Positions 7,675 through 61,536 of a DNA stretch of 64,000 nucleotides are shown one piece after another. Source of the DNA: Acutalibacteraceae bacterium (GTDB lineage: Bacteria > Bacillota > Clostridia > Oscillospirales > Acutalibacteraceae); assembly GCA_045590055.1 (NCBI GenBank), contig JAZNQF010000080.1, forward strand, positions 8,901-72,900, in the 5' to 3' direction. Position numbers and translations under genes: made by a program. Position 1 is the stretch's first letter. Each line of letters begins with the position of its first letter. A model generated the notes under the pieces. The model did not search any database. It was not told the DNA's origin and saw only the letters and a list, made by a program, of their open reading frames with translations.

Positions 7675-9230
7675 ATGGAATTGGATCAGATCAAGAGTCT
7701 TAAAAATATGATAGACTTTGCCGATGAACATTTTGCGGGTGAAGATTTTATCAGGTATAAGGTTGATGGGGGGCTTGCCTCAAAAACTTATGCCCAGCTT
7801 AAGTGCGCCTGCGATGCTTTCAGCAGAATGCTTGAGGCAAAGCAGCTCAAGGGCGCTCACGTTGCCGTTGTAGGTCCCACTTGCTTTGAGTGGATTGTTA
7901 CATATCTCGGCACGGTCAATTCCAACAGTGTTATCATCCCCCTTGCCGCAAACGAGAGCACGGAAATGAACTGCAAACTCATGGATTTTGTTGACACCGA
8001 TGTTTTCGTTTTTGACAAAGCACATGTTGAACTTTATCACGCCGTAAAATCAAGCCTCTCCAACATCCGCTTTTATATTTCTCTTGACGGCGCAGTTGAG
8101 GAAGAAGGCGTAATTTCCTTTGCTGATATTATTGAAGAATTTGCCGGCGTTTATAACTATGAGCCCGATGAAAATGTGATGTGCACCATTCTTCTCACAT
8201 CGGGCACAACGGGCTTCCCGAAGGGCGTTATGCTTTCGCACCGCAACCTTGTTTCTGCTGCAATGAGTGTGAACGAAAACTGCACCGCAAGGAGTGTGCT
8301 TTCCTGCCTTCCCATTCATCATGCATTTTGCTTCAACACAAACTTCCTCAAGCTTATTTTCCGCGGAGCAACTGCCTGCATCAATGACAATCTTATGAAT
8401 CTGCTTGCAGATATCAGACTTTTTTCACCGGACAGCATTGTTGTTGTTCCTCAGCTTGCAAAGAAGCTGATGGAAGGTGCAATCATGTTTTCCAAGGCTC
8501 ATCCCGAATTTCCCGTCAGCGATGCAGTGCATTCCTTCTTAGGCAACAGCGGCAAAATCATCTCAGGTGGTGCGCCTCTTGATGCAACCCTCAGCGCACG
8601 CTATAACGGTACGGGGATGCTTGTGCTCAACGGCTACGGTATGTCTGAATGTGCACCCTGCATTGCAAATAACACGCCCAACGATTACCGCCACGGCTCT
8701 GTAGGTAAACCAATACCGTGCGTACAGACAAAGATTGAAAACGGCGAGCTCCTTGTCAAGGGCGACAACGTAATGCTCGGCTATTATAAAAACCCCGAAG
8801 CCACCAAGGAAGCCTTCACAGACGACGGATGGATGCATACGGGTGATCTCGGCCATTTTGATGAAGACGGATATCTCTACATAACGGGCAGATGCAAAAA
8901 CCTCATTCTTCTTGACAACGGCGAAAACGTCTCAGCCGAATTCCTTGAGGAACGTTTTTCATCCGAGCCGCTTGTTGCGGAGGTTGTGGTTTACGGTGAG
9001 GACGGTGCAATCTGCGCAGAACTGTTCCTTAACCACGAACTGATGCAAAAACAGAACATAACTGACATTGACGCTGAAATGATGGAGCTTCTTTCAAGGG
9101 TAAACAACGGTTTACCGCCTCATCAGCGCATTTCAACCTACGTTATCCGCGACATTCCGTTTGAGCGTACCGCATCACAGAAGATAAAAAGAATAAGCGG
9201 CAAACCTTCAAGGAAGGCGCCCCGTGTTGA
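7675..9230 (+). other. domain: ANL adenylation domain, fatty-acyl ligase-like (approximate bounds)
   Basis: Motifs LLTSGTTGFPKGVMLSHRNL, GYGMSECAP and TGDLGHFDEDGYLYITGRCKNLILLDNGENV. Confidence 0.75.
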
Positions 9231-11769
9231 ACCCAAGACGCCTGCAGAGGTAAGAGTCTGCAACGCCGTCAGGGAGATTCTTCTCAAGGATACTGTTGGC
9301 ACAAACGAAAACTTCTTCGCAATTGGCGGCGACAGTTTGTCAGCCGCTGAGCTTGCAGTCAGCCTCCACGTCAACACTCAGGTGATTTATGACAATCCCT
9401 TCCTCAGCTCACTGGCACTTGTTGTTGAAAAAACAATGGCAGATGAGGATATGGTACGCCCTGACGTCAACGGCATCATCAAAGCATCAACCGATGAAAG
9501 GGTAGAGGAGTATAAATGTGTTCTTCTCACCGGTGCAACAGGTTTTTTGGGTGCGCACATCCTCAAAGAACTCACGGAAAGAAATGTGAAAACCATCTGC
9601 CTTGTTAGGAATTCCGAGCGCTTCCTTTCTCAGCTTGAGTATTATTTTGATGATATTGATATATCAAACGTTACCGTCATCAAGGGCAACATTGAAAACA
9701 CACACCTTGGTTTGTCTGCAGACGTTTATAACTCACTTGCATCACAAGTGGATGCAGTGTTCCATGTTGCTGCAAACGTTCACCATGCAGGCGATTACCT
9801 TGAACTCAAAAAGACAAACGTTGAGGGCACGCAGAACGTGATTGATTTTGCAAAGGCGGCAAATGCGGTGCTTCACCACACGTCAACCGTCAGTGTTCAC
9901 GGCTCTGCAACCGTTGTGCAGGAAAACAGAACCGCTGTTTTTGATGAGTTTACCCTCAACATCGGTCAGCATTTCTATGACAACGTATATATCCACAGTA
10001 AATACCATGCGGAAGAAGCGGTACTGCTTGCAAGGCAGGAAGGTCTCAAGTCAAACATTTACCGTATCGGTAATCTCACGTGGCGTGCAAGTGACGGCAA
10101 ATTCCAGCGCAACAATGAAGAAAACGGCTTTTTGAGCCGTGTGCGTGCAATGATGAAGCTCGGCATGCTTAACGACAACATGGATACCTATCCCATGGAC
10201 CTCACTGCCGTTGATGAATGTGCAAAAGCCTTTGTAAGCCTTGCTTTTGCAGGCCACACAAACGAGATTTATCATCTTTATAATCCGAATTATCTCAAAA
10301 CCGCAGAGCTTTTCAATGCTCTCGGCAGGCAGTATAAGCACGTTTCTACGCTTGAAACAATTGAAACTGTTTTTGCCAATACGGACGACCGCGATATCAG
10401 AGTTTATCTGTTCTACATGATTATTTCAGGTCGCTCTGCATATATCGATACTCGTTGCACCTTCACCGTTGAAAGAATGGCTGAGGTCGGCTTTGAATGG
10501 AGCAAGCCTGACGGCAGATATATGAATCTTGGCGGCCATTGCACCGATTTTGATGAGTATGAAGTCAAGCCCATGCGCACATGCGGCGGTGCACTCACTC
10601 CGATTCAGAAAATTGCATTCGGCGGTCTGCAGGACGCTCAGCTCGGTGAAACCGAACTGTTCACGGGTGAAGCTTCACTTTCTGAACTTGCAGAAAGAGT
10701 CAGCGCGGACGGTGTGAGCAACCCGTTGGTTGTCACCTTCAACGCGGCGCTTAACTTTGAAAACGTGAAAACTCTGCTTTCCTCTTTCGGTAAATACACG
10801 GCGTACACTTCAATCAACGGTGAGCCGACAGTTGAGGATACGGAAAACTGCCTGCTTGCTTATCAACAGAATGATTGCGACGGTGTTGTTGCAATCGGCG
10901 GCGGATCTGTTATCGACTGTGCAAAAATTACGGCTCTGTGTGCCGCAAACACACACAAGCAGCTTGATGACCTCAACACCTTTGCCGTCAAAGCAAACCG
11001 TTGCGTGCCGTTTTACGTTGTACCCACAACTGCAGGCACGGGTTCCGAATCTACGGTATTCGCCGTAATTACCGACACAAAGGAGCACAAGAAAAAGGCG
11101 TTCGCCAGCGATAAATTTATGCCTTACGCGGTTGCGCTTGATGCGTCACTCACGCTCAGCGTGCCCGAATACGTTACTGCATGCACCGCCATTGATGCTC
11201 TTTCACATGCCGTTGAAGCTTATGTCAGCACCTTTGGCGTTGCCTTTGAGCAGGACAGAAAGTTGGCTCTTGTTGCTGCACGTAAGATTTTCTCAAGCCT
11301 TGAAAAAGCATGCAATAACCTTGACGATATTGCCGCCCGCACTGCCTTGCTTGAAGCCTCACATGAGGCAGGCGTTGCTTTCAGAAGAATCAGCACGGGT
11401 TACATTCACGCGCTTGCACACAGACTTGGTGAGCTTTATAATCTGCCTCACGGTGCGGCAATTGCAAGTGTGTTCACTTCAGTGCTCAGGGCTAACATGC
11501 CTGAAATTTGCAACGACCTTGCAAGCATGGCTGTATACTGCGGAATCTGCGAAGAAAGCGCAAACAAAACTGCAGATGCCGAAAAGTTCATTGCCGAAGT
11601 TGACCGTCTTATTGCTTGTGTCGGTATCGACAAAAAAGCAGTTGCTTTCAACGAAGCGGATGCACAGGAGATTGTGCTTCGTGCGCAGGAGGAAGTCAAG
11701 GTTGTAGGTTATCCCAAGCCGTTTTCGGACGAAAGCCTCACAAAGCTTTTGCTTGACAATTTCAGATAA
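7675..11769 (+). CDS. multidomain adenylation / carrier protein / thioester reductase / iron-containing alcohol dehydrogenase fusion (carboxylic-acid-reductase-like)
   Basis: One continuous 1364-aa ORF carrying motifs of all four domains; see the domain entries below. Confidence 0.85.
   Translation: [1364 protein letters not shown]
9240..9440 (+). other. domain: phosphopantetheine-binding carrier (approximate bounds)
   Basis: [14 protein letters not shown] motif. The predicted attachment Ser554 codon is AGT at 9334-9336. Confidence 0.75.
9515..10630 (+). other. domain: thioester reductase (SDR, NAD_binding_4-like; approximate bounds)
   Basis: Rossmann motif [14 protein letters not shown] and catalytic-type Y-x-x-x-K (YIHSK). 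Confidence 0.7.
10630..11766 (+). other. domain: iron-containing (group III) alcohol dehydrogenase (approximate bounds)
   Basis: Motifs [33 protein letters not shown] and [18 protein letters not shown]. Confidence 0.75.
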
Positions 11770-20879: not shown

Positions 20880-22055
20880 TTGAATATAATGCGAACATTG
20901 AAAAGGATTGTCAGGGAGACAGATAAAGTCCTGCTTCTTATCTGCATGCTTCTGTCTGCTTTTGGTACACTGATGGTCACAAGCACCACATACCGAAAAA
21001 TTGCCGAAGGCAGTTGGATATCAAGAGACGGCTACGTTATGCTTTTGGCCTTAGGTCTCGGAATCGGCGTGTGTCTGTTTGTGTCTTTCATTGACTATGA
21101 TTTTATGCTGAAGCTATGGCCTGTTGTTGCCGCAGGCTGTGTTATTGTTATGCTGCTTTTGTTTCCTTTCGGCAGCTCACCGCAAGGCAGAGACGATGCT
21201 ATTTCGTGGTTTAAAATCACCGAGACGTTGTATTTCCAGCCGTCAGAGGTTGTTAAAATCGGTTTTATCATCACGTTTGCATGGCATCTTGAAAAGGTTA
21301 AAAGGGACATAAACAGTTTGCTCAATGTGTTTTTGCTGTGCGTTCATGCAGGTATACCCATTGTGCTTGTTGTGCTCACGGGTGACCTCGGCTCAGCACT
21401 TGTTTTCATGCTGATGTTCATTATTCTCATGTTTATTGCGGGTGTTCATTGGCTTTATTTTGTTTCGGGTGCGGCAATCTGCTGCGCCGCAGTGCCGGTG
21501 ATATGGTACAAGGTGTTCGGCACAATTCAGCGCAACCGTTTCCTTGCGCTGATATATCCCGACAGATACCCCGATGAAATCTATCAGCAGCAACGCGCGC
21601 AGACCGCAATCAAGGCGGGCGGACTTTTCGGTCAGGGCTTGTTCAGCGGCAAAAGCACGCAATCTGGCGCAGTGCCTGAAATTCAGAACGACATGATTTT
21701 TGCGGCAGTGTGCGAAGAGCTCGGCTTCATCGGTGCAGTTGCACTGATTCTGTTGTTTATGGTGTTGATTGCGCGTATCGTCTACGTCGGCAAACGTTCC
21801 GGTAGTTTTTCAGCGTTTCTTATGTGTTGCGGTGTTGCGGTTATGATAGGCGGTCAGGCAATCATCAACATCGGCATGTGCACCCAGCTCCTGCCCGTAA
21901 TCGGCATCACGCTTCCGCTTATAAGTGCCGGCGGCTCATCGGTTATCTGCACATATCTTGCAATCGGTGTTGTGTTGAGCGTTTACCGATACAGTTGCGT
22001 GCAGAAAACGCCTGACGATTTCAGGTATCGCCGCATAAGCACACCTTTTGAATAA
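20880..22055 (+). CDS. SEDS family protein (FtsW/RodA/SpoVE)
   Basis: Multi-TM ORF of about 390 aa with the conserved DLGSALV, NDMIFAAVCEELGF and LPLISAGGSS motifs. The start (TTG 20880 or ATG 20889) is uncertain. Confidence 0.75.
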   Translation: MNIMRTLKRIVRETDKVLLLICMLLSAFGTLMVTSTTYRKIAEGSWISRDGYVMLLALGLGIGVCLFVSFIDYDFMLKLWPVVAAGCVIVMLLLFPFGSSPQGRDDAISWFKITETLYFQPSEVVKIGFIITFAWHLEKVKRDINSLLNVFLLCVHAGIPIVLVVLTGDLGSALVFMLMFIILMFIAGVHWLYFVSGAAICCAAVPVIWYKVFGTIQRNRFLALIYPDRYPDEIYQQQRAQTAIKAGGLFGQGLFSGKSTQSGAVPEIQNDMIFAAVCEELGFIGAVALILLFMVLIARIVYVGKRSGSFSAFLMCCGVAVMIGGQAIINIGMCTQLLPVIGITLPLISAGGSSVICTYLAIGVVLSVYRYSCVQKTPDDFRYRRISTPFE

Positions 22056-25102: not shown

Positions 25103-27157
25103 CTACTCAACCTCAATCTCAACTGAGCCTGTTTTTTCAAAGTTGTTCAGGTCAAAGCGCTGAATAAGCGTGTTTGAAAGAGTGTAAACAGATTCACCGA
25201 TATACGTGCCTCTGAAATAGTCCGTGATGTCCTCACCGTGAACAAAGCCGTTGTACTTTTCAAGTCCGTTCTTGTTTACCTTCAACGTCATGAAGGAGTA
25301 AGTGTCGCCTGAAATGTAGTCTCCGTTCGGTGCGTATCTGTGAATCTGAAGCGGAATGCCAATCAGCCCTTTTTCCGCATAGAACATAAAGGCCTTCGGG
25401 TCGTTGTTAATTGACGTGTAAGCATATTCAACTTCAATGTTGTTGATTTCAAACGGCTTTTCGGGGTTGCTTATGTCAAAAAGTGAAACCTTAACGGGTG
25501 TATAACCTTTGTCGTTTGCTTCACCGTAACCGACGCCGACCACAAGTCCGTCACCTACGGGGTGCAGATAAGTTGAAAAACCGGGCAGCTTAACCTCACC
25601 GCGTACGGTGGGGTTCGTTGGGTTGGAAAGGTCAATCACGAATAACGGGTCTGTGTTAACGTAGGTTACAACGTATGCCGTGTTGCCCATAAAGCGTACG
25701 GATTTGATTTCCTCATTGTATGCAAGGTCTTCAACCTTACCGACAATGTTCAGCCCGCCGTCAAGCACGTATACACTGCTCACGTCAATGTATGTGCTGA
25801 AATCGTACGCTGTTGTTGCAATGCGGAAATATCCGTTGTATTCATCCATTGAATATTGATTGAGACAGTAACCGGGTACAATACCTTCAGCCTTGAAGCT
25901 GAGCTGAGTGCCGTTGATTGAAAAAGCCTTGATTTTTGTGTTATCTCTGTCTTTTTCATATACGTTTTTGGTGAGATACATGGTGTTTTGTGTGCAGTAA
26001 ACGTCAGATGCACTGTCAAGTGCGGCAAGGCTTGAAACCTTGCTTTCGAGCTGTGCCGTGTCAAATGCAGAAATAATGGCATAGGTCTGCGCATCGGGAG
26101 CACCCACTTCATCCCAATGGATGTTCACGCCTTCAACGCGCTCACCGTCAACTGTGGGTATGCAGTCTTTTTTGACTTCTTCCTCGGTTTTTGTGTAAAG
26201 GTCGGGGTTATACTCTGTTACAGTGTACACAATTCCGCCAACCATTCTTGATGAAATCATATGACCGTCCTGATTGAAGCGGCGCATTTCCTTGGGTGCG
26301 CTTCTGTCACTTACGTCATAAGTGATAACAACCGTGTCTCTGTCGGGGGAGTAAAATGAGCAACAACAGTAAAGTCCGTCAACAACCTTGTAATTGTCGT
26401 TTGCGCCTATCCAGCTGTTGCACAGAACAACCAAGGTGTCACCGTTGAGGTAGATGTTGGATACGTACAGATTCGTGCCTTCTTCGGCGTTTGCATCAGC
26501 TTCAATTTTTATTTGAGATACCGTGTTCATCCTGTCGGCATCAACAATGCTGATAACTGAGCCGCCGTTTATCGTGTACAGATATGTGCCGTCGTTTTCA
26601 ATTATGTCTGCCTCGTCAACACCGTCAACCTGAGTGTTTGTTTCACCGTGGCTGACATTCTCTCTGTTTGCGGCGGCACCGTTAACCGTGCCCGTTGTGA
26701 TTGTAGCATCTTTCATATCGTCGGCTGAGAAAAAGAAATCGCCGTCGGCTACCGATACCGTCCAGCCTTCTTTGAGCGTAGCTTCTTCCTTATCGATCTC
26801 TTTTTTTAATGACAGAAAATGATTTTCGACTTTCTTGTGCATACTGTCGTCGATTTGTAAGGTTGCGGTTGTTGCTTCATCTGCAAGTGTTGTCTGCTCA
26901 GTCGGCTGAATGGTGCTCGGCCGAGTGCGCGTGAACGGTATGTTTTCAACCGCAATTGCACCTGCAAGCAGTACCGCAAGTGCGGCGGCAACCGAAGCAA
27001 TCCTCTTTATCGTACGTGATGTTTTTTTCTCCTGCATGGGTGTAATACCCTTTGATTTGATAAGCTCAACGGCACTTTCTTTTGAAAGTGACTCGGGACG
27101 CTGAGCGTTTGAATTGTTGATTCTTGCGAATATATCCTCGTTGTTCTGATTTTTCAC
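25103..27157 (-). CDS. beta-propeller domain-containing protein (COG4880-like) with N-terminal cytoplasmic segment and TM helix; possible anti-sigma partner
   Basis: 684 aa, GTG start after AAAGGAAG. TNTQVDGVDEADIIENDGTYLY is typical of the secreted beta-propeller family. It sits 37 nt downstream of an ECF sigma gene. Confidence 0.7.
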   Translation of the reverse strand: MKNQNNEDIFARINNSNAQRPESLSKESAVELIKSKGITPMQEKKTSRTIKRIASVAAALAVLLAGAIAVENIPFTRTRPSTIQPTEQTTLADEATTATLQIDDSMHKKVENHFLSLKKEIDKEEATLKEGWTVSVADGDFFFSADDMKDATITTGTVNGAAANRENVSHGETNTQVDGVDEADIIENDGTYLYTINGGSVISIVDADRMNTVSQIKIEADANAEEGTNLYVSNIYLNGDTLVVLCNSWIGANDNYKVVDGLYCCCSFYSPDRDTVVITYDVSDRSAPKEMRRFNQDGHMISSRMVGGIVYTVTEYNPDLYTKTEEEVKKDCIPTVDGERVEGVNIHWDEVGAPDAQTYAIISAFDTAQLESKVSSLAALDSASDVYCTQNTMYLTKNVYEKDRDNTKIKAFSINGTQLSFKAEGIVPGYCLNQYSMDEYNGYFRIATTAYDFSTYIDVSSVYVLDGGLNIVGKVEDLAYNEEIKSVRFMGNTAYVVTYVNTDPLFVIDLSNPTNPTVRGEVKLPGFSTYLHPVGDGLVVGVGYGEANDKGYTPVKVSLFDISNPEKPFEINNIEVEYAYTSINNDPKAFMFYAEKGLIGIPLQIHRYAPNGDYISGDTYSFMTLKVNKNGLEKYNGFVHGEDITDYFRGTYIGESVYTLSNTLIQRFDLNNFEKTGSVEIEVE

Positions 27158-27194
27158 GGTTAACTTCCTTTCGTTGTTTTTTTCGGATATGCGG

Positions 27195-27734
27195 TTATAA
27201 CGGAAAATGAGCGTTTGTGTCTGTTAGCTTTTTTCTCAGCTTTTCAGCGGTGCGTGAAAGCTTTGAGCGTACCGTGCCCGAAGGCAAGCTGAGCATCTTG
27301 CCGATTTCCGAGCTGTTGTAGCCGTAAATTGCGCTCAGGAGCAGTATTTCTTTTTCTTCATCCTCAAGTTGCAGCACAGCTTCGCGTAATGCAAGCTCCT
27401 CGTCGCCAATGAAGTCCGCAGAAGTATCTTCCGCTTCGTCTTGAGGTAGCGTTGTGTTCCTCTGCGTGATTTTTTCACGCAGAATATGCTTGCAGCAGTT
27501 CACAAGAATTTTGAAAATCCACGGCTTGAAGCTTTCGGCTTTTTTCAGCGCGCTTATTTTTATGTATGCGTTGCAAATTGTTTCCTGAACGGCATCCTCA
27601 GCCGCTTCCTTGCTTCCAAGATACCACAAAGCATAGCGATACAATTCATCGGCATACGTTTCATACAGTTCGCCGAAGGCTTCTGCGTTGCCGTTTTGCG
27701 CTTGCTTAACAAGCATTTTTGTTGATACGCTCAT
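27195..27734 (-). CDS. RNA polymerase sigma-70 family, ECF-type sigma factor
   Basis: 179 aa with region 2 (FGELYETYADELYRYALWYL) and region 4 (SSEIGKMLSLPSGTVRSKLSR). Confidence 0.8.
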   Translation of the reverse strand: MSVSTKMLVKQAQNGNAEAFGELYETYADELYRYALWYLGSKEAAEDAVQETICNAYIKISALKKAESFKPWIFKILVNCCKHILREKITQRNTTLPQDEAEDTSADFIGDEELALREAVLQLEDEEKEILLLSAIYGYNSSEIGKMLSLPSGTVRSKLSRTAEKLRKKLTDTNAHFPL

Positions 27735-30012: not shown

Positions 30013-30044
30013 AAACACATAGAATTAAATCTCAACTATATAAA

Positions 30045-30082
30045 AACATGGTGCATTCTGTTTTTTCGGAATGCACCATGTT
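30045..30082. terminator. bidirectional terminator (carB side and FAD-gene side)
   Basis: 14-bp stem AACATGGTGCATTC / GAATGCACCATGTT. The T-run is TTTTTAT on the minus strand and TCTGTTT on the plus strand. Confidence 0.7.
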
Positions 30083-30094
30083 TCTGTTTATAAC

Positions 30095-33000
30095 TTAGAA
30101 CTCCACCACACCGTCAAAAATCATGCGGGTTGAACCCGTAAGAAGAATGCCGTTGTCTGTGTAATTAACGATGAGGTCGCCGCCTCTGAGTTTTACGGTT
30201 ATGTCCGTGTTCTTTTTGCAAAAGCCGTTTTCAACCGCGGCAACAACTGCGGCACATGCGCCGGTGCCGCAAGCAAGGGTTTCACCGTTGCCGCGCTCCC
30301 ACACGCGCATTTTAAGCGTTGTTTCATTCACCACGCGCACAAATTCTGTGTTCACTCGTTTTGGGAAGATGGGAGCGGTTTCAAACTGCGGACCTATTTT
30401 TGCAAGGTCAATGCCGTCAACTCTGTCGCAGAAAACAACACAGTGCGGGTTGCCGACCGAAACGCAGGTGATATTATACTGAGTGCCTGCAATCGTCACG
30501 GGGTAATCAATTGCGGTTTCGGTGTTGAGTTTTGCAGGCAAGCTGCTCACATTCAGCTTCGGCATACCCATGTTTACACACGCGGAAGAAACCTTGCCGT
30601 TCATTTTGTAAAGGCTGACTTCCTTCACACCGCTTGCTGTTTCAACTGTAACACTGTCACCTGTGGCAATGCCGTTGTCGTGTATATATTTTGCAACAGA
30701 GCGGATTGCGTTGCCGCCCGTTTTTGCTTCGCTGCCGTCTTTGTTGAAAACGCGCATTTTTGCATTTGCTTTGTCTGATATTTCAATAAGCACAATGCCG
30801 TCACCGCCGATGCCATGGTGTCTGTCGCACAGTTCAACACACAACGATTCGGGGCAGGTGATGTCGCCCGAAATGTTTTCAACAATAATATGGTCGTTGC
30901 CTGCAGTTTCCATCTTGGCAAAGTAGAAACGCTTTCTCTTTTCGCGCAGGTTGTTGATGTCAACAAGCTCCGTGTTGTGCTGGTTGAAGCGGCTTGCAAT
31001 AATGTCAGCGAGCGCATTTGCCGTGTCAAGTGACGTGAGGCAGGCAATTGAAAGCTGAAGTGCACGGCGGTGCAGTGTAATATAGTCACCCATGGTCGAA
31101 TCGTACAGAGCACCCGTGTATACAACATAGAAAATCTTACCGCTTTCAAGCAGCTTGAAAATCTCGTCACTTTCCTGCATGCCCTTAACGTACGTTACGT
31201 CAATGCCGAGCTTTGAAATTGAATCAGCAGTGTCTTTGGTTGCATAAAGCTTCATGCCCAGGTCGTCAAGCTTTTTGGCAAGGGTAACAACCTCAATCAA
31301 ATCATGCTCGTCAACGCTGAGAAAAACACCTGCTTCATTTTCTGCAGAGGGCATGCGCAGGTCAAATCCTGCAGAGGTCAGCCCTTTGAACAACGCTTCC
31401 GTGAGTGTTTTACCGATGCCGAGGACTTCACCTGTTGACTTCATTTCGGGGCCGAGGATAGAGTTGACATCCATCAGCTTTTCAAATGAAAAAACGGGCA
31501 CTTTAACCGCAAAATACGGCGGTGTTTTGTAAAGACCCGTGCCGTAGCCGAGGTCCTTGAGCTTTTCACCGACCATTACCCTTGATGCAAGGTCAACCAT
31601 CGGTACGCCCGTAACCTTGCTTATGTACGGTATTGTTCTTGAAGCTCTGGGGTTTACCTCAATAACGTGCAGCTTGTTATGGTATATGAGGTATTGAATG
31701 TTTACAAGACCCTTTGTTCCGAGTGAAAGCGCGAGCTTTTCGGAGCAGTCGATAACATCCTTGAGTATCTTGTCGTTAAGATTGAACGGGGGATAAACCG
31801 CAATCGAGTCACCGCTGTGCACGCCGGCTCTTTCAACGTGTTCCATGATGCCGGGAATCAGCACGTCTTCACCGTCGGAAATAACGTCAACCTCAAGCTC
31901 GGGACCCATCATGTACTTGTCCACAAGTACAGGGTTTTCAATCTCACCCGAGAGTATGATAGTCATATATTGCTTTACGTCCTCGTCGCAATGGGCAATC
32001 GTCATGTTCTGGCCGCCGATTACGTAAGACGGACGAAGCAGTACGGGATAGCCGAGCTTGTTTGCGGCGTCAAGAGCTTCCTGCATTGACATAACACCCA
32101 TACCGCGCGGACGGCGGATTGCAAACTTTTCAAGCAGAGCATCAAAACGCTCTCTGTCCTCTGCGGTGTCAATGCCGTCAGCGGACGTGCCGAAAATCTT
32201 TATACCGTTTTCATCAAGGAACTTTGTCAGCTTGATTGCCGTTTGCCCACCGAAAGCAACCACAACACCTTCGGGCTTTTCAACCTCAATTACGTTCATA
32301 ACGTCCTCGGGTGTCAGCGGCTCAAAATAGAGTCGGTCTGCTGTGTCGTAGTCAGTGGAGACGGTTTCGGGGTTGTTGTTGATTATGGCTACGTTGTAGC
32401 CGAGCTCCTTGAGTGTCCACACGCAATGCACGCATGAATAGTCAAACTCAATGCCCTGACCGATTCTTATCGGTCCCGAGCCGAGCACGATGATGTTTTT
32501 ACTGCCGCTTTCTATTCTTTCACGTGCTTCACATTCGGTGTCATACGTGGAATAGAAATACGGTGTTACCGCGTTATACTCAGCCGCACAGGTGTCAACC
32601 GTTTTATATACGGCGCTTCTGTGCTTTACCTCTTTTGCGCCCGAAATTCTTTTGAGCGCCGCATCGGTGTAGCCAAGCTTTTTGCCGCGCAGATAGTTTT
32701 CGTCAGATATTTCGCCCTTTGATTCAATCTCTTTTTCAAAATCGGCAAGGTTTTTCAGCTTGTTGATAAACCAGCGGTCAATTCGTGTAACCTCGTGTAT
32801 TTCATCAACCGTTATGCCTGCTTTGATTGCTTCAAACACCGTAAACAGACGCATATCATCCATGTCAGCAAGTCGCTCACGCAGGCCCTTTTTGCTTTTT
32901 GGTTGTGCATTGAGTGTGTCAAGTGAAATCTCTGCACCGCGTACGGCTTTAAGAATTGCCATTTCAAAGCACGGAGCAATTGACATAACCTCGCCTGTTG

Positions 33001-34132
33001 CCTTCATTTGTGTGCCGAGTTTTCTGTCGGCATTCACAAATTTATCAAAAGGCCACTTCGGGAGCTTGACCACAACGTAGTCAATTGAAGGCTCAAAGCA
33101 TGCACAGGTAACGTCGGTGATGTCGTTTTTGATTTCGTCGAGGTTATATCCCAAAGCAAGCTTGGTGGTAACCTTTGCAATCGGATATCCGGTAGCCTTG
33201 CTTGCAAGGGCGGAAGAGCGTGAAACCCTGGGGTTTACTTCAATAACGGCATATTCAAAGCTGTTGGGGTTAAGCGCAAACTGACAGTTGCAGCCACCCA
33301 CAATTTCAAGCTCCGAAATAATTTTGAGCGATGCCGTACGAAGCATCTGATATTCTCTGTTGGAAAGTGTCAGCGCAGGCGCAACAACAATGCTGTCGCC
33401 CGTGTGTACGCCCACGGGGTCAAAGTTTTCCATGCTGCAAACTGCAATTACGTTGCCCATGGAATCACGCATGGCTTCAAATTCAATCTCTTTCCAGCCG
33501 AAGATGTATTTTTCAACAAGAATCTGCGTGATGGGGGATAGATCCAGCCCCGTTCTTGCAACAGTGCGAAGCTCGTCCTCATTGTATGCAACACCGCCGC
33601 CTGCACCGCCTAGGGTGAATGCAGGGCGGATAATAACAGGGTAGCCGATTTCTTCTGCGATTCTGACGGCAGTTTCAATGTCGTTTGCAATTTCCGAGGG
33701 AATGCAAGGTTGACCAATTCTCTCCATCGTATCACGGAAGATCTTGCGGTCTTCTGCCTTGTCAATAGCCTCAGCGCTTGTACCCAAAAGCTTTACGCCG
33801 TGCTTTTCAAGGTATCCGTCCTTGGAAAGCTGCATGGCAATTGTAAGGCCTGTCTGTCCGCCGAGACCTGCAAGCAGACTGTCCGGTTTTTCTTTTTCAA
33901 TAATGCGCTTGACGGTCTGAGCAGTCAGCGGTTCAAGGTATATTTCGTCTGCGAGTGCCTTGTCTGTCATAATTGTGGCAGGGTTTGAGTTGACGAGAAC
34001 AACGTTAACACCTGCCTCTTTGAGTACACGGCAAGCCTGGTTGCCTGCATAGTCAAACTCAGCCGCCTGACCGATAACAATGGGACCCGAGCCGATGACG
34101 AGAACTTTTTTGATATCCTTATTCAGCGGCAA
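30095..34132 (-). CDS. carB: carbamoyl-phosphate synthase large subunit fused in frame to a C-terminal DapF-like (diaminopimelate epimerase fold) domain
   Basis: Complete CarB sequence (two ATP-grasp halves plus an MGS-like domain), then RFYFAKMETAGND... with no stop codon. The likely start is TTG at 34132, 8 nt after GGAGG; the ORF track starts at GTG 34141. Confidence 0.85.
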   Translation of the reverse strand: MPLNKDIKKVLVIGSGPIVIGQAAEFDYAGNQACRVLKEAGVNVVLVNSNPATIMTDKALADEIYLEPLTAQTVKRIIEKEKPDSLLAGLGGQTGLTIAMQLSKDGYLEKHGVKLLGTSAEAIDKAEDRKIFRDTMERIGQPCIPSEIANDIETAVRIAEEIGYPVIIRPAFTLGGAGGGVAYNEDELRTVARTGLDLSPITQILVEKYIFGWKEIEFEAMRDSMGNVIAVCSMENFDPVGVHTGDSIVVAPALTLSNREYQMLRTASLKIISELEIVGGCNCQFALNPNSFEYAVIEVNPRVSRSSALASKATGYPIAKVTTKLALGYNLDEIKNDITDVTCACFEPSIDYVVVKLPKWPFDKFVNADRKLGTQMKATGEVMSIAPCFEMAILKAVRGAEISLDTLNAQPKSKKGLRERLADMDDMRLFTVFEAIKAGITVDEIHEVTRIDRWFINKLKNLADFEKEIESKGEISDENYLRGKKLGYTDAALKRISGAKEVKHRSAVYKTVDTCAAEYNAVTPYFYSTYDTECEARERIESGSKNIIVLGSGPIRIGQGIEFDYSCVHCVWTLKELGYNVAIINNNPETVSTDYDTADRLYFEPLTPEDVMNVIEVEKPEGVVVAFGGQTAIKLTKFLDENGIKIFGTSADGIDTAEDRERFDALLEKFAIRRPRGMGVMSMQEALDAANKLGYPVLLRPSYVIGGQNMTIAHCDEDVKQYMTIILSGEIENPVLVDKYMMGPELEVDVISDGEDVLIPGIMEHVERAGVHSGDSIAVYPPFNLNDKILKDVIDCSEKLALSLGTKGLVNIQYLIYHNKLHVIEVNPRASRTIPYISKVTGVPMVDLASRVMVGEKLKDLGYGTGLYKTPPYFAVKVPVFSFEKLMDVNSILGPEMKSTGEVLGIGKTLTEALFKGLTSAGFDLRMPSAENEAGVFLSVDEHDLIEVVTLAKKLDDLGMKLYATKDTADSISKLGIDVTYVKGMQESDEIFKLLESGKIFYVVYTGALYDSTMGDYITLHRRALQLSIACLTSLDTANALADIIASRFNQHNTELVDINNLREKRKRFYFAKMETAGNDHIIVENISGDITCPESLCVELCDRHHGIGGDGIVLIEISDKANAKMRVFNKDGSEAKTGGNAIRSVAKYIHDNGIATGDSVTVETASGVKEVSLYKMNGKVSSACVNMGMPKLNVSSLPAKLNTETAIDYPVTIAGTQYNITCVSVGNPHCVVFCDRVDGIDLAKIGPQFETAPIFPKRVNTEFVRVVNETTLKMRVWERGNGETLACGTGACAAVVAAVENGFCKKNTDITVKLRGGDLIVNYTDNGILLTGSTRMIFDGVVEF
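30098..30928 (-). other. domain: DapF-like, 277 aa, first catalytic Cys replaced by Gly
   Basis: FNKDGSEAKTGGNAIRSVAKY aligns to the canonical FN.DGSE....CGNG.RC. Codon 30716-30718 is GGC (Gly). The second Cys motif, ERGNGETLACGTGACA, is intact. Confidence 0.8.
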
Positions 34133-35204
34133 CGCGCTCACCTCCCATCAATGAAACAAAGTGGTCAAAAAGGAAAGACGTGTCTGTCGGTCCCGCGCAT
34201 GCTTCCGGGTGGAACTGCACAGAGAAAGCCTTGATGTCAGGATACTCAATGCCCTCACACGTGCCGTCGTTCGCGTTGACGAAGCTTTGTACCGCGTCAA
34301 CCTTAAGTGTTGAAAAATCAACCTCAAATCCGTGATTCTGGCACGTTATGTACGTTCTGCCGCTTTCGGTGCATCTCACGGGTTGGTTTGAGCCTCTGTG
34401 CCCGTGGCGCATTTTGCACGTTTTTGCTCCGTTTGCGAGCGCAAGAAGCTGATGCCCTAAACAGATGCCGAACATGGCTGCCTTGCCCTTTAAAAGCTTA
34501 ATCTGCTCAATGCAGTAGCTCAGCTCAAACGGGTCACCGGGACCGTTTGAAAGCATAATGCCGTCTGGGTTTGTGGCAAGTATATCCTCAGCATTGGTGA
34601 ATGCGGGCACTTCTGTTACAAGACAACCCCTTTTCTGCAGTTCTTTAACAATGTTGCCCTTTGCGCCGTAGTCAATGAGTGTAACGCGGTGCTCTGGCTT
34701 TGTGTCAAGCGGATATACGCTGATTTCGTCGCAGGTTACATCTTTGACTGCATTTGTGATTGCGTATGCCTTGATTGCATCAAGGTTTTCGGGTACCTCA
34801 GAGCAGATTGCGGCATTCATAATGCCCTCAGTGCGCAAAATGCGCATCAACTCCCTTGTGTCAATGCCGCTGATGCCGGGCACACCGCTTCTTTTGAGAA
34901 ACTCGTCGAGGTTATATTCGCAACGGAAGTTTGAGGGGGTATTGCACCATTCGCGCACAACAAGCCCCTTTACGCCGCATTCGCCCTCAAAGTCTTCTTC
35001 AATTATGCCGTAATTGCCGATGAGAGGGAAGGTCTGCATCACAATCTGACCGTAACAGCTCGGGTCGGTGAGTGTTTCAATGTAGCCCGATAAGCCTGTT
35101 GTAAAAACAAGTTCACCTATGCTGTCAATGTCCGCGCCAAAGTGTTCGCCCTCAAAAATACGTCCGTTACTTAAAACGAGATATGCTTTTTTCAAGTCAA
35201 TCAT
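34119..35204 (-). CDS. carA: carbamoyl-phosphate synthase small (glutaminase) subunit
   Basis: 361 aa. GICLGHQLL (catalytic Cys) and FHPE motifs. It overlaps the carB start. Confidence 0.9.
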   Translation of the reverse strand: MIDLKKAYLVLSNGRIFEGEHFGADIDSIGELVFTTGLSGYIETLTDPSCYGQIVMQTFPLIGNYGIIEEDFEGECGVKGLVVREWCNTPSNFRCEYNLDEFLKRSGVPGISGIDTRELMRILRTEGIMNAAICSEVPENLDAIKAYAITNAVKDVTCDEISVYPLDTKPEHRVTLIDYGAKGNIVKELQKRGCLVTEVPAFTNAEDILATNPDGIMLSNGPGDPFELSYCIEQIKLLKGKAAMFGICLGHQLLALANGAKTCKMRHGHRGSNQPVRCTESGRTYITCQNHGFEVDFSTLKVDAVQSFVNANDGTCEGIEYPDIKAFSVQFHPEACAGPTDTSFLFDHFVSLMGGERVAAE

Positions 35205-35952
35205 CTGCCTTTATTTCTGCGTTATATGGATAATGCTCCATGAGCTGAAGCTTGAATTTGTTGATTGAGTGAAGTCGGTCAATTCTCTGCTTGGTGGCTT
35301 CGTCTTCACACACACCCGTGCGGATATACTTGTCAAGCACGGCATAAGTGAAGCCGAGATTATCCTCGTCCGTTTTGCCGCAAAGACCGTCAGAGGGCAC
35401 CTTGTCAACAAGATTTACGGGCAAACCGAGGCTCCTGCCGATTTCTTTGACCTCCTGCACGGTGAGCATTGAAAGGGGACTGAAGTCACCCACGCTGTCG
35501 CCGTATCTTGTTGAATATCCAACCCAGTCCTCCGAGAGATTGCACGTGTTTGCAACCCTGCCGTTATACGTCTGCGAAACAGCGTAAACCGTTGCCATGC
35601 GAAGCCGAGGCGGCAAATTAACCGTTGCCTGACGGCTCATTTCGGGCATCTGTTTATTGAGTTCATTCACAAGTCCGTCGTAGCAATCACGGATATTGAC
35701 CGTTACGCTTTTTATGCCAAGGTGCTCAACAAGCTGAACGGAAGCGTCAATGTCGCTTTGCTCACCGTTTGGCATGAGCACACCGATCACCCTGTCTTTA
35801 CCAAGTGCTTCGACGCACAGTGCTGCGGTAACGGAGCTATCCTTACCGCCCGAAATGCCAAGCACTGCGTTGCAGTCCTTACCGTTTTTTTCAAACCATT
35901 CTTTTATCCATTCAACTATTTCTTGTGTTACTTTTGCTGCATCAAAGTTCAT
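35197..35952 (-). CDS. nadE: ammonia-dependent NAD+ synthetase
   Basis: PP-loop LGISGGKDSS. ATG at 35952 after GGGAGTG. It overlaps the carA start by 8 nt. Confidence 0.85.
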   Translation of the reverse strand: MNFDAAKVTQEIVEWIKEWFEKNGKDCNAVLGISGGKDSSVTAALCVEALGKDRVIGVLMPNGEQSDIDASVQLVEHLGIKSVTVNIRDCYDGLVNELNKQMPEMSRQATVNLPPRLRMATVYAVSQTYNGRVANTCNLSEDWVGYSTRYGDSVGDFSPLSMLTVQEVKEIGRSLGLPVNLVDKVPSDGLCGKTDEDNLGFTYAVLDKYIRTGVCEDEATKQRIDRLHSINKFKLQLMEHYPYNAEIKADD

Positions 35953-35983
35953 GGAAATCACTCCCTTGGGATTCTTAACTGTA

Positions 35984-37414
35984 TCAGACAAAGATTTCTG
36001 CGTTGAAGCCGAGCAGCTCCTTGTTTTCTTCGAGTATGGGGTTGATATAATCCCTTATGAAATCTTCGGTCTGTTCTTTTGCACAACCCGTGAAGCCGTC
36101 ACCGCTTGTGACTGAGTCAAGCTCCTGCTGAGTGAGACTAAACCTCGAATCTGCCGCGATTCTTTCAAGCAGGTCGTTTTTTGCACCGTTGAGCTTGATA
36201 TTCTTTGCCACATCAACGGAGTGTTGACGGATTGCCTCATGCAGTTCCTGCCTGTCTCCGCCTTTTTTGACGCCGAGCATGAGGATGTTTTCTGTTGCCA
36301 TGAAGGGCATTTCTTCTCTAAGGTGAGCTTCCACAACCTTGGGATACACCGTGCCGTTTGAAACAACGTTGATGTAAAGCGCAAGAATCGCATCAACCGC
36401 AAGGAACGCTTCGGGTATGGAGATACGTCTGTTTGCGGAGTCGTCAAGCGTTCTCTCAAACCACTGTGTTGCCGCAGTAATTGCGGGGTTGAGTGAGTCT
36501 GTCATAACGTATCTTGCAAGGGAGGCAATGCGCTCGCTTCTCATGGGGTTGCGTTTGTATGCCATGGCAGAGGAACCGATTTGCTTGTCCTCAAACGGTT
36601 CGTCAAATTCTTTGAGATGTGAAAGCAGACGGATATCGTTTGAAAACTTTGCCGCACTCTGAGCGATAGAGCAAAGGGCGGTCATCACAAAATAGTCAAC
36701 CTTCCTTGAATAAGTCTGACCCGAAACTGCGGCAACCTTGTCAAAGCCCATTTTTTCTGCAATGAGCTTTTCAAGCTGCTTTACCTTTTCCGTGTCACCG
36801 CCGAAAAGCTCAAGAAAGCTTGCGCCTGTGCCGGTTGTGCCTTTGCAACCGAGAAGGCTCAGCCTCGAAAGCTGGAAATCAAGCTGTTCAAGGTCGTAAA
36901 TTAGGTCCTGCGCCCAGAGGGTTGCTCTTTTGCCCATTGTTGTGGGCTGAGCCGCCTGAAAATGTGTGTATGCAAGAGAGGGGAGGTCCTTGTGCTTCTG
37001 AGCAAATGCACCAACGGCGGCAATGCAGTTGATAAGCTGTTTTCTAATCAGCAGCATGGCTTTGCGCATGAGGATAATATCGGTGTTGTCACCAACGTAA
37101 CATGATGTTGCACCGAGGTGGATGATGCCCTTTGCGTCGGGGCAGCAGTCACCGTAGGTTTTGATGTGTGACATTACGTCGTGGCGAAGCTGAGCTTCAT
37201 AAGCTTTTGCCGCTTCAAAATCGATGTTGTATACGTTCGCTTTAAGCTGCTCAATCTGTTCGTCGGTGATTTCAATGCCGAGCTCTTTTTCGCTCTCGGC
37301 AAGGGCAACCCACAGTTTTCTCCAAGTGGAAAACTTTTCATTATCGGAAAAAATATGTTTCATTTCTTTGCTTGAATATCTTGTGCAAAGAGGGCTTACG
37401 TAAGCATCGTGCAT
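35984..37414 (-). CDS. purB: adenylosuccinate lyase
   Basis: YVSPLCTRYSSKEM N-terminus and the fumarate-lyase signature GSSAMAYKRNP. ATG at 37414, 8 nt after AAGGAG. Confidence 0.9.
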   Translation of the reverse strand: MHDAYVSPLCTRYSSKEMKHIFSDNEKFSTWRKLWVALAESEKELGIEITDEQIEQLKANVYNIDFEAAKAYEAQLRHDVMSHIKTYGDCCPDAKGIIHLGATSCYVGDNTDIILMRKAMLLIRKQLINCIAAVGAFAQKHKDLPSLAYTHFQAAQPTTMGKRATLWAQDLIYDLEQLDFQLSRLSLLGCKGTTGTGASFLELFGGDTEKVKQLEKLIAEKMGFDKVAAVSGQTYSRKVDYFVMTALCSIAQSAAKFSNDIRLLSHLKEFDEPFEDKQIGSSAMAYKRNPMRSERIASLARYVMTDSLNPAITAATQWFERTLDDSANRRISIPEAFLAVDAILALYINVVSNGTVYPKVVEAHLREEMPFMATENILMLGVKKGGDRQELHEAIRQHSVDVAKNIKLNGAKNDLLERIAADSRFSLTQQELDSVTSGDGFTGCAKEQTEDFIRDYINPILEENKELLGFNAEIFV

Positions 37415-37629
37415 TTTGAACACTCCTTGAAAATGAATTTTATTTCATTGCGGCGGCATATACCGCCAACTATTTATGATATCCCAAAAGCGAGGCTTAG
37501 TCAATAGATATCCATACAATTATAGAGCGAACAGGCAGGTTTTTACAAATGTGTATGCTGAATATATAACCGCGCAGTGCAGAGCATATATATAAGCACA
37601 ACAAATTAAATAAGAAAGCGGTGGTAAGC

Positions 37630-52392: not shown

Positions 52393-53334
52393 GTGGCTGA
52401 AATGGAATTCTCGCACATTAGTGTTCTGCTCAACGAGAGCATAGATTCACTTGATATCAAGCCTGACGGTATCTACCTTGATGCAACGGCAGGCGGTGGC
52501 GGACACAGCGCTGTGATTCTTTCAAAGCTTTCGTCCAAAGGCCGTCTCATTTGTGTAGACAGAGACCCAGATGCCATAAAGGTGCTCAAGGCACGCTTCG
52601 GCGATGACGAAAGAGTGATTATTGTCAACCGCAACTATTCCGAAATCTGCGATATTCTGCAGAGTCTCGGTATCAGCAAAGTAGATGGCATTCTCGCCGA
52701 CCTCGGTGTAAGCTCCTTTCAGCTTGACACGGCAGAAAGAGGCTTCTCCTTCCACAACGATGCTCCGCTTGACATGCGCATGAGCAAAGAGGGTATGACG
52801 GCGGCAGATGCAGTTAACACACTCAGCGAAGCAGAACTCAGCAACATCATCTTCAAATACGGTGAAGAAAAATTTGCTCGCCGTATCGCCAAAGAAATCG
52901 TAACCGCAAGGCAACACAAGCCTATTGAAACCACCTTCGAGCTTGTTGACATCGTCAAAGCCGCTATCCCTGCGGCCGCAAGAAGGACAGGCGGTCATCC
53001 GTGCCGCCGCACGTTTCAAGCCCTCAGAATATTCATAAATGAGGAAATATCACGCCTTGCATCATCGGTAACAGACATGTTCGACTGTCTCAACGTAGAA
53101 GGCCGTCTTTCTATCATAACCTTCCACTCACTTGAAGACAGAACAGTAAAACAAACATTCGCATCCCTTTGCGAAGGATGCACTTGTCCGCCCGATTTTC
53201 CCGTTTGCGTGTGCGGAAATAAACAGAAAGCAAAACTTGTTTTCAAATCGGTTGCTCCGAGTGACGCGGAGATTGAAGAGAATCCGCGTTCAAGAAGTGC
53301 AAGGCTCAGATGCCTTTGCAGGACAGCTGAATAA
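52393..53334 (+). CDS. rsmH: 16S rRNA (cytosine1402-N4)-methyltransferase
   Basis: HISVLLNE, DATAGGGGHS, DLGVSSFQLD and FHSLEDR motifs. Confidence 0.9.
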   Translation: MAEMEFSHISVLLNESIDSLDIKPDGIYLDATAGGGGHSAVILSKLSSKGRLICVDRDPDAIKVLKARFGDDERVIIVNRNYSEICDILQSLGISKVDGILADLGVSSFQLDTAERGFSFHNDAPLDMRMSKEGMTAADAVNTLSEAELSNIIFKYGEEKFARRIAKEIVTARQHKPIETTFELVDIVKAAIPAAARRTGGHPCRRTFQALRIFINEEISRLASSVTDMFDCLNVEGRLSIITFHSLEDRTVKQTFASLCEGCTCPPDFPVCVCGNKQKAKLVFKSVAPSDAEIEENPRSRSARLRCLCRTAE

Positions 53335-53367
53335 AACGGCATTTTATTAAAAGAGAGGTAAGGGAAG

Positions 53368-53838
53368 ATGGCTCAACCGGCAGAAAGACTTGAATTTCAG
53401 GATTATTTCGGTGCGAACTATCAGACTGCATACGAAGCGAAACCCAGAACTGTGGTAGAAAAAGAGCCTTCTATGACGGTTGTCAAGCCCCGTAAGCTCA
53501 CTTTCGCTGAGCGCAAGCAGGAAGAAAAGCTTGGCAACAGACGCTGGTTCAAAGCTACTGCGATTCTTTGTGTCCTGTTCATTCTCGGTTCACTCAACAT
53601 TGCAGCAATGACATATAACGACAATTACTACCGAGAGATTCAGGAGCTTAAATATTCACTTGAACTCAAACAGAGCGAATACGACCAGATTAACGCGAAA
53701 CTTAACTCACTTGTTTCATACGACAGAGTTGAACAGGTTGCAGTTGAGCAGCTCGGTCTTATTAAAATCGACAGTGCAGACTGGGAATACATAAACCTTA
53801 TGGACGGCAACAGCATTGTGGTATCTCAGGCTGATTGA
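53368..53838 (+). CDS. ftsL: cell division protein FtsL-like (septum formation initiator family)
   Basis: 156 aa with a single TM helix followed by a coiled-coil. It sits between rsmH and the PBP gene. Confidence 0.6.
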   Translation: MAQPAERLEFQDYFGANYQTAYEAKPRTVVEKEPSMTVVKPRKLTFAERKQEEKLGNRRWFKATAILCVLFILGSLNIAAMTYNDNYYREIQELKYSLELKQSEYDQINAKLNSLVSYDRVEQVAVEQLGLIKIDSADWEYINLMDGNSIVVSQAD

Positions 53839-53979
53839 GGTATATAAGCAACAAGCTGAAAATACAATTAACTGACATGCTATGGCGGGAGACGGAAACG
53901 GATATCCCGCCTGCCTTTCATAAAAAGCAGATGCGGTTTTTCTGCATGTATACCCAAGGAAACCTAAGGAGGTACGGAT

Positions 53980-56202: not shown

Positions 56203-56245
56203 ATACAAAACAAGCGCGAAATCTGCGCCGAAAGGAAGGAATATT

Positions 56246-57682: not shown

Positions 57683-57694
57683 GAGGACTGAAAA

Positions 57695-58735: not shown

Positions 58736-58774
58736 TTTACCTTTATTTAAAACGAAAAATAAGGAGGCGCTGAC

Positions 58775-60217: not shown

Positions 60218-60230
60218 GGGGATATATAAA

Positions 60231-61349: not shown

Positions 61350-61481
61350 AACGTTCAACTCCCGTAATGCATCGGTATTACGGGGGTTGTTATATTCAAT
61401 GTGCAAAGAGTGGTGCAACGTCAATTTTTTATACGTGGTGTATGGTGCCGTTTTTAAATACGGCACAAATCACCTGTTTTT

Positions 61482-61526
61482 GCCTTTCAGCATAGAATAA
61501 AACGGATTACTTATTAGCTGAAAGGC
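61482..61526 (+). promoter_or_regulatory. hairpin sequestering the murA ribosome-binding site
   Basis: 10-bp stem GCCTTTCAGC (61482-61491) / GCTGAAAGGC (61517-61526). The 3' arm contains the GAAAGG RBS, about 10 nt before the GTG at 61537. Confidence 0.35.
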
Positions 61527-61536
61527 GTTGATTTTT

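Follow-up and report, generated by a model that had tools for sequence, protein, structure and literature searches.

The subject of this analysis is a gene in a 64-kb stretch of DNA, hereafter the window, from contig JAZNQF010000080.1 of an Acutalibacteraceae bacterium. It encodes CarB, the large subunit of carbamoyl-phosphate synthase (CPSase), fused in frame to a diaminopimelate (DAP) epimerase (DapF) domain that lacks the first of its two catalytic cysteines. This observation, made in an initial annotation of the window, is confirmed here, and the fusion without the first Cys is conserved throughout an entire group of Clostridia from gut and rumen. Because the Cys loss is conserved across this group, the domain most likely has a new, non-epimerase role. 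In the best reading, which we hold tentatively, it would be a module that binds a ligand and probably regulates a CPSase of the arginine pathway.

A complete CarB continues in frame into a DapF fold

The fusion gene is a single minus-strand open reading frame (ORF) within the window, open over 1348 codons (30095..34141). TTG at 34132 is the likely start, as it lies 7-8 nt 3′ of GGGAGG and agrees with the MPL(N/D)K of the relatives; carB::dapF* (30095..34132, minus strand) would then probably encode 1345 aa, ending at a TAA stop, with the CarB and DapF profiles in one frame. Its CarB part (30989..34132, minus strand) comprises two pre-ATP-grasp/ATP-grasp halves, the oligomerization domain, and the MGS-like allosteric domain (31034..31294, minus strand; Pfam MGS at aa 950-1036). 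This part matches NCBIfam NF003671 over its full length (1443 bits for a cutoff of 599, aa 5-1051) as well as TIGR01369 (1409 bits), and the Pfam domains CPSase_L_D1, D2, D3, and MGS were all found. The DapF-derived domain of ~276 aa (30098..30925, minus strand) scores 259 bits with TIGR00652 at aa 1073-1346 (cutoff 114.65); taken in isolation, it scores 264 bits with the same profile and 182 bits with PF01678. The CarB-DapF junction contains no stop codon and reads ...NTELVDINNLREKRKRFYFAKMETAGND, and the linker at this point (NTELVDINnLR..., 30926..30988, minus strand) has a fixed length family-wide, with invariant N, T, E, and R and a predicted local distance difference test (pLDDT) score of 66-69. 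A complete CarB running without a stop into DapF, as the initial annotation described it, is therefore borne out by the NF003671 and TIGR00652 matches in a single 1348-codon frame, and the likeness to DapF across the whole extra domain by an end-to-end alignment with solved DapFs (phmmer against PDB 2otn, E=7e-64).

The AlphaFold2 (AF2) model of the allosteric and DapF region has a mean pLDDT of 87, exceeding 90 across most of the DapF part. In Foldseek, its best superpositions are with ligand-bound DapFs, namely 9mro_A (TM 0.91, root mean square deviation 2.1 Å) and 3ejx (TM 0.87). Modeling thus recovered the DapF fold with confidence, and the domain is predicted to adopt an intact, closed-type two-lobed form of it.

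The first catalytic thiol is lost from a conserved DAP pocket

The window segment KTGGNAIRS aligns with KSCGNGLRC in 2otn and EMCGNGIRC in 9mro, which puts a Gly where other DapFs have their first catalytic Cys (Cys73 in E. coli and H. influenzae), the base for the L-center. Its codon is GGC (30716..30718, minus strand), with the frame checked against the stop at 30097-30095, in agreement with the replacement read earlier from the letters alone. Retention of the second thiol holds as well, the Cys217 equivalent being encoded by TGC (30269..30271, minus strand) in an ACGTG motif that aligns with ACGTG of solved DapFs. The window domain therefore lacks one of the two thiols of a DapF and has the other, and it carries every substrate-binding residue of this enzyme (N11, N64, G74, N75, N157, N190, E208, R209, G218, and S/T219).

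Residue conservation was computed over 175 Cys73-less and 134 Cys-containing sequences. Among the former, N64, N190, E208, R209, and H159 are invariant or almost so (H159 and E208 in 175/175), N157 is kept in 171/175 and Cys217 in 173/175, and G218 and T219 match real epimerases in their conservation. Drift is limited to the catalytic sub-site, where position 73 is Ala, Gly, or Ser, G76 is replaced by Ser, Cys, or Asn, and N11 has become Asp in 57/175 Cys-less sequences versus 0/134 Cys-containing ones. The equivalent of Y268, an aromatic residue of the dimer interface, is Tyr or Phe in 172/175 Cys-less sequences; E. coli DapF becomes monomeric when Y268 is mutated (PMC6061791).

In Corynebacterium glutamicum DapF, replacement of the equivalent Cys by Ala (C83A) leaves the enzyme almost inactive, as do Ala mutations of each binding residue (PMC5296763). 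By analogy with these mutants, DAP epimerase activity should be lost in the window domain, which probably cannot epimerize DAP, and the earlier expectation that the Cys loss should abolish epimerization is supported to that extent. Candidate compensating thiols were rejected. Cys29 (in ITCPES) never occurs together with Cys73 but is absent from independently Cys-less lineages, and Cys is not the consistent residue at either position 76 or position 160. The window itself has no thiol at 76 or 79; with Gly73, Ala76, and Ser79, its only thiol or hydroxyl on that helix is Ser79.

The Cys-less fusion is conserved and under purifying selection

A one-genome-per-species scan gave at least 598 matches, of which the best 80 loci, from 80 assemblies, were analyzed. 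All 80 are CarB-DapF fusions, of ~1340-1360 aa wherever the contig permits. They come mostly from metagenome-assembled genomes (MAGs) labeled Oscillospiraceae, Ruminococcaceae, Christensenellaceae, or Clostridia, and four are from isolates. Two Cys-less fusions (L052 and L068) lie on 113-kb and 130-kb contigs of MAGs labeled Treponema and Spirochaetaceae, the result of either horizontal transfer or mis-binning.

The exact window protein was not found in the public protein collection, its best match there being 70% identical. The 120 closest database proteins (cluster representatives) are 56-70% identical, and at least 76 of them have the CarB C-terminal motif LTSLDTA...NTELVDIN ahead of the DapF domain. 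Taken with the window, these representatives have Ala (106), Gly (13), or Ser (2) at position 73 and never Cys. Across 70 full-length fusions, the residue at position 73 is Ala in 35, Cys in 20, Gly in 12, Ser in two, and Phe in one, and that at position 217 is Cys in 69 and Ser in one. The Phe, found in L063:10001-10933, places a bulky residue inside the catalytic sub-site. The Gly highlighted by the initial annotation is thus part of a conserved non-Cys state but is itself unusual in its clade, where Ala is the rule. The interpretation given there also stands in part: the fusion is conserved but is not tied to the Cys loss, as ~20 of the 70 full-length proteins keep both Cys. These both-Cys fusions have the look of functional epimerases and are linked to dapL.

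The DapF/CarB divergence ratio is 1.40 in Cys-less pairs versus 1.58 in Cys pairs, and at matched CarB identity, the DapF identities of Cys-less and Cys-containing fusions are 0.569 versus 0.578 and 0.649 versus 0.644. This equal or lower divergence rules out relaxed selection on the Cys-less domain, which is under undiminished purifying selection, the same as the Cys-containing copies. The two hypotheses put forward, a pseudo-enzyme that may have acquired another role and an enzyme that may work with one base, were consequently the right pair. Apparent stand-alone Cys-less DapF genes (272-290 aa) were rejected as gene-calling artefacts; they trace to an N-gap (scaffold gap) in L081, a frameshift in L082, and, in L083, an ORF of 1339 aa that is really intact.

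Two clades differ in the effector site of CarB

A tree built from the CarB part only of the 70 full-length fusions has two deep clades, I (29 members) and II (41 members, including the window). Position 73 is Cys in 20 members of clade I (otherwise Gly in five, Ala in two, Ser in one, and Phe in one) and in 0/41 of clade II (Ala in 33, Gly in seven, and Ser in one). At least five state changes at position 73 are required on this tree, and almost none at position 217; the fusion arose before the Cys loss.

The clades also differ in the site that binds the nucleotide effectors UMP and IMP (uridine and inosine monophosphate) in E. coli CarB. The equivalents of K954 and K993 are each Lys in 28/29 members of clade I and variable in clade II, that of N1015 is Ser in 27/29 versus Tyr in 36/41, and that of T1017 is Ser in 29/29 versus Gly in 38/41. 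Relative to E. coli CarB (1a9x), the window has K954L, K993G, N1015Y, and T1017G and keeps T974, T977, and T1042. Its allosteric domain thus has a degenerate nucleotide-effector site, the UMP/IMP effector residues being a mark of the nucleotide-regulated type and not of CarB as such.

Cys29 is found in 143/175 Cys-less sequences and in 0/20 full-length fusions retaining Cys73. In the window, the stretch at 30806-30850 (aa ITCPESLCVELCDRH) contains, at the first DapF-domain helix, a CX4CX3C pattern specific to clade II, which may be a metal site, a redox site, or part of the core packing.

Gene context separates the clades and points to a likely origin of the fusion

Neighboring ORFs were clustered, and family representatives were verified with NCBIfam. 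DapL (TIGR03542, 519 bits) is encoded after the fusion, directly or past pyrG, at 11/19 Cys-containing loci with enough flanking sequence, whereas an operonic dapL follows the Cys-less fusion at 0/42 loci. Conversely, argC, argJ, argB, argD, or argF lies directly upstream on the same strand at 26 Cys-less loci versus 0 Cys-containing loci (Fisher p = 2e-7 for dapL and 2e-5 for arg, shared ancestry not being corrected for). In clade II, argCJBDF usually precedes the fusion gene, which is then the last of an argC-J-B-D-F-carA operon.

The closest stand-alone DapF (P0128/P0391, both Cys) is encoded in a GS-ANTAR-dapF-pyrG-nadE-dapL operon, which equals the clade-I arrangement minus carAB (compare GS-ANTAR-carA-fusion-dapL at L041). 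At L085-L094 (e.g., L085:8030-14402), this free-DapF operon adjoins GOGAT, AsnA, and PurA, and the context suggests that amide- and amino-transfer enzymes are grouped there in a supra-operon under nitrogen (ANTAR) control. Most likely, carAB would have come to sit directly upstream of dapF in a nitrogen-regulated dapF-pyrG-(nadE)-dapL operon, and fusion would have followed.

A canonical stand-alone dapF with both Cys lies 0-2 kb downstream of a both-Cys fusion in three genomes, those of Neglectibacter caecimuris, of an Acutalibacter MAG, and of Acutalibacter muris KB18 (CP021422, complete), with pyrG and dapL behind it; the stand-alone genes are at L049:12742-13614, L059:10973-11827, and L095:8001-8843. 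The pair looks like a tandem duplication, and its occurrence in three genomes means that fused and free copies can coexist. The search for stand-alone DapF yielded only Neglectibacter and Acutalibacter relatives, and no second dapF was found in the 64 kb of the window or in the 10 kb around each Cys-less locus.

The DNPR motif that the initial annotation noted in murE is present as SDNPR in the window gene at 56099-57682 (plus strand), which scores as the DAP-adding ligase NF001126 (592 bits). Given the DAP-type wall indicated by murE and the need of any lysine synthesis for meso-DAP, an epimerase would have to be encoded elsewhere. The cell wall of Christensenella minuta contains LL-DAP (PMC7937921), which hints that the loss of the epimerase could relate to wall chemistry; no link between that species and a Cys-less fusion was found, and this is no more than a lead.

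A proposed ligand-binding module and its alternatives

The intact recognition sub-site, the remodeled catalytic sub-site, the lost effector lysines, and the arg operons are together best fitted by a ligand-binding module. The proposed mechanism rests on three joint changes in clade II, namely placement in arg operons, effector lysines that are no longer conserved, and loss of the DapF thiol. The lost thiol is the one that deprotonates the L-center of LL-DAP; the recognition sub-site for the L-amino-acid moiety (N64, N157, N190, E208, and R209) and Cys217 are kept. The domain would most likely bind DAP or an L-amino acid of similar shape, for example ornithine, citrulline, or lysine. The two lobes of DapF shut on their ligand, and in the fusion this movement would be coupled to the adjoining allosteric domain, so that a CPSase of the arginine pathway would in effect have gained a new effector site. 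The idea of an allosteric module, already raised by the initial annotation, agrees with the unconserved effector lysines of clade II and with the arg operons, and the role itself is one that we infer. A more specific proposal, that the clade-II domain is a new allosteric site that replaces the lost UMP/IMP site and reports, through lobe closure on the ligand, the level of DAP or of an isosteric amino acid of the arginine pathway (ornithine or citrulline, for instance), appears possible but doubtful; if true, this sensor domain would be the first on CPSase to derive from an epimerase, and also a natural case of a two-base racemase turned receptor.

Several observations weigh against a regulatory module. 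The regulatory role is deduced from a sequence pattern, and the AF2 model shows no confident interface between the DapF and allosteric domains (predicted TM-score 0.64, linker pLDDT ~67). The context statistics ignore phylogeny, and clade II is essentially one lineage; the window operon itself contains no arg genes, and none were found within 10 kb. A second dapF was seen in clade-I genomes only, with none within 10 kb of the Cys-less loci. At L064, a clade II locus with Ala73, dapL starts 9.4 kb downstream of the fusion (L064:20326-20931), amid GOGAT, GS, asnB, and pyrG, and since no other dapF lies within 10 kb, the fused domain could be the only DapF there. Finally, the strict retention of Cys217, H159, and E208 exceeds what a pure binding site needs and suits residual chemistry.

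Such chemistry could be that of a one-base enzyme, the leading alternative, though one that we consider unlikely, in which Cys217 alone would serve as acid or base on the D-face of a DAP-like substrate. The reaction might be a beta-elimination or dehydration, a stereospecific protonation of the decarboxylase or tautomerase kind, or an irreversible conversion of an amino acid that carries a carbamoyl or ureido group and derives from carbamoyl phosphate. This would agree with the conservation of Cys217 (173/175), H159 and E208 (175/175), G218, and T219 at the level of genuine epimerases, in contrast to position 73, where Ala, Gly, and Ser alternate, and with the asymmetric and recurrent character of the loss (at least five changes at position 73 versus almost none at 217). 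The DapF homologue DcsC (7vdy) handles a ureido amino acid. Precedents are trans-3-hydroxy-L-proline dehydratase, which has the proline-racemase fold with one Cys replaced (6r76 and 4k7g, among our fold-search matches, we take to be structures of this enzyme), arylmalonate decarboxylase, with a Cys to Gly change in the Asp/Glu racemase fold, and the single-Cys mutants of DapF, which Koo et al. reportedly found in 2000 to eliminate HF (cited in PMC5296763). However, arginine and pyrimidine metabolism offers no known candidate substrate or pathway gap, the pocket is otherwise still DAP-like, N11, which is required in DapF catalysis, drifts to Asp in one third of members, and the fusion at L063 has Phe at position 73.

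A purely structural role is improbable. Here the domain would dimerize as free DapF does and hold CarB protomers together, or would be required in folding, with the ligand irrelevant; the Tyr or Phe at the Y268 equivalent in 172/175 sequences, the fixed length and conserved sequence of the linker, and the presence of the fusion in all of the best 80 loci would fit, but the polar binding residues (N64, N157, N190, E208, R209, and C217) would not be expected to stay invariant down to ~45% identity. It is no less improbable that the domain is still the DAP epimerase of the cell, with another group (Cys or Ser at position 76, Cys160, Cys29, or water) in place of the Cys73 thiol. The DAP pocket is intact throughout, the TIGR00652 score is far over the cutoff of the DapF equivalog, ~45% of Cys-less members have Cys or Ser at position 76, nearly all of them have Cys160, and the Cys-less fusion of L064 has dapL nearby and no other dapF within 10 kb. 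Against this, the C83A change nearly abolishes the activity of C. glutamicum DapF (PMC5296763), no replacement base is conserved over the Cys-less set (the window having Gly73, Ala76, and Ser79), Cys29 is missing from independently Cys-less lineages, and the operon link to dapL is gone. An artefact or a decaying remnant is effectively refuted: the absence of the exact window protein from the public collection and the frameshifts or gaps in some MAG copies (L048, L081, and L082) could be taken to indicate a sequencing or assembly error or a dying domain, but the same architecture and non-Cys residue recur in dozens of independent assemblies, which rules out a sequencing error or frameshift, evolution is not accelerated, the ORF is unbroken, and AF2 predicts the fold with confidence.

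Relation to known systems

The family is a variant of known CarB, of the DapF fold, and of single-Cys racemase descendants, and forms no new category. A Cys73-less DapF-derived domain on an arginine-type CPSase is apparently undescribed, and no paper on a CarB-DapF fusion or on natural Cys73-less DapFs was found in the literature. Compared with canonical DapF (TIGR00652/PF01678; 2otn from B. anthracis, the cyanobacterial 9mro, and 5m47 from C. glutamicum), the window domain is ~39% identical over its full length and shares the two-lobed fold (TM 0.81-0.91), the DAP-contacting residues, the second Cys, and the dimer-interface aromatic; it differs in having Gly (Ala in most relatives) for the first Cys, in its place on the CarB C-terminus, and in the missing link to dapL. 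The clade-I both-Cys fusions (Acutalibacter muris KB18, CP021422; Neglectibacter caecimuris; Ruminococcus sp. FC2018) resemble it in architecture, linker, DapF-domain identity (~50-55%), and a carA directly upstream. Unlike the window, they keep Cys73, K954, and K993, are often followed by pyrG and/or dapL (dapL in 11/19), and are probably still DAP epimerases; some have a stand-alone dapF adjoining.

The arginine-specific CPSase of Bacillus is encoded by carAB inside argCJBD-carAB-argF. Most clade-II carAB genes are similarly found in an argC-J-B-D-(F) operon, with the UMP/IMP-type site degenerate, but Bacillus CarB has no extra C-terminal domain, and the window operon is instead purB-nadE-carAB. 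As in 3-hydroxyproline dehydratase and arylmalonate decarboxylase, one of two Cys is replaced and the remaining pocket kept; those enzymes belong to other families, stand alone, and perform new one-base chemistry on known substrates, whereas no reaction is known for the window domain. Catalytic domains have been reused as allosteric modules in the chorismate-mutase domains on DAH7P synthase and in HisZ of ATP-PRT. By analogy with these enzyme-derived domains on a pathway-entry enzyme, closure on a ligand could transmit regulation.

Profile hidden Markov models score the domain as an equivalog DapF, and metabolic reconstructions of many of the abundant Clostridia in gut and rumen may therefore credit a non-working DAP epimerase and miss the real meso-DAP route, which bears on cell-wall type and lysine prototrophy. 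The family provides a natural experiment, as both the operon context and the allosteric site of the CPSase change between its versions with and without the Cys, and it shows the repurposing of a cofactor-independent racemase fold after one base is lost. A regulatory role, if confirmed, would give a textbook allosteric enzyme an effector module of a new kind. The question is directly testable, since A. muris KB18 has both fused and free dapF and the isolate CM74B_53B has the Cys-less form.

Annotation of the family and related fusions

NCBI names the full-length fusions plainly as carbamoyl-phosphate synthase large subunit and the fragments as "diaminopimelate epimerase, partial". In JGI, the name "carbamoyl-phosphate synthase large subunit" is given to fragments that contain DapF alone and even to the free DapF of A. 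muris. Two proteins, P0197 (692 aa) and P0266 (742 aa), have a CarB-like N-terminus (MPLNRQIKKV...) fused to a canonical both-Cys DapF, and a weak CPSase_L_D2 remnant was detected in P0197 (50 bits) but not in P0266. By their sequence, they appear as the mirror-image case, in which the CarB part decayed instead of DapF. In P0123 (512 aa), a single ORF joins an OTCase N-terminal domain, the tail of the CarB allosteric domain, and a Cys-less DapF domain; the contig is either misassembled here or has undergone a deletion that brought argF up to the 3′ end of carB.

Operon and neighborhood of the fusion gene

The window operon has the order purB-nadE-carA-carB on the minus strand, with the CarA partner directly upstream of the fusion. 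Its first gene is purB (adenylosuccinate lyase, 35984..37423; TIGR00928, 377 bits), with promoter-like sites at 37476-37548. It is followed by nadE (NAD+ synthase, 35197..35991; TIGR00552, 178 bits) and by carA (CPSase small subunit, 34119..35204; NF009475, 418 bits), whose stop overlaps the carB start region. Just 3′ of the fusion stop, a hairpin with a 17-bp stem and then a T run (30044..30083) forms the operon terminator. An Rfam scan near the operon found no riboswitch or leader.

Elsewhere in the window, a plus-strand cell-division and cell-wall cluster (52393-62793) contains a SpoVD-like penicillin-binding protein gene (53980-56202), murE, mraY, an ftsW/spoVE-like gene, murG, and murA, and a second rodA/ftsW-like gene lies at 20880-22055; the window organism looks like a spore-forming Firmicute. 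The ORF at 7675-11769 (plus strand) encodes a 1364-aa protein with an adenylation domain, whose match to an AusA-like nonribosomal peptide synthetase (224 bits) is far below the cutoff. At 25103-27734 (minus strand), a gene for an ECF-type sigma factor (27195-27734) precedes an ORF of 684 aa that matched nothing in NCBIfam and possibly encodes an anti-sigma factor.

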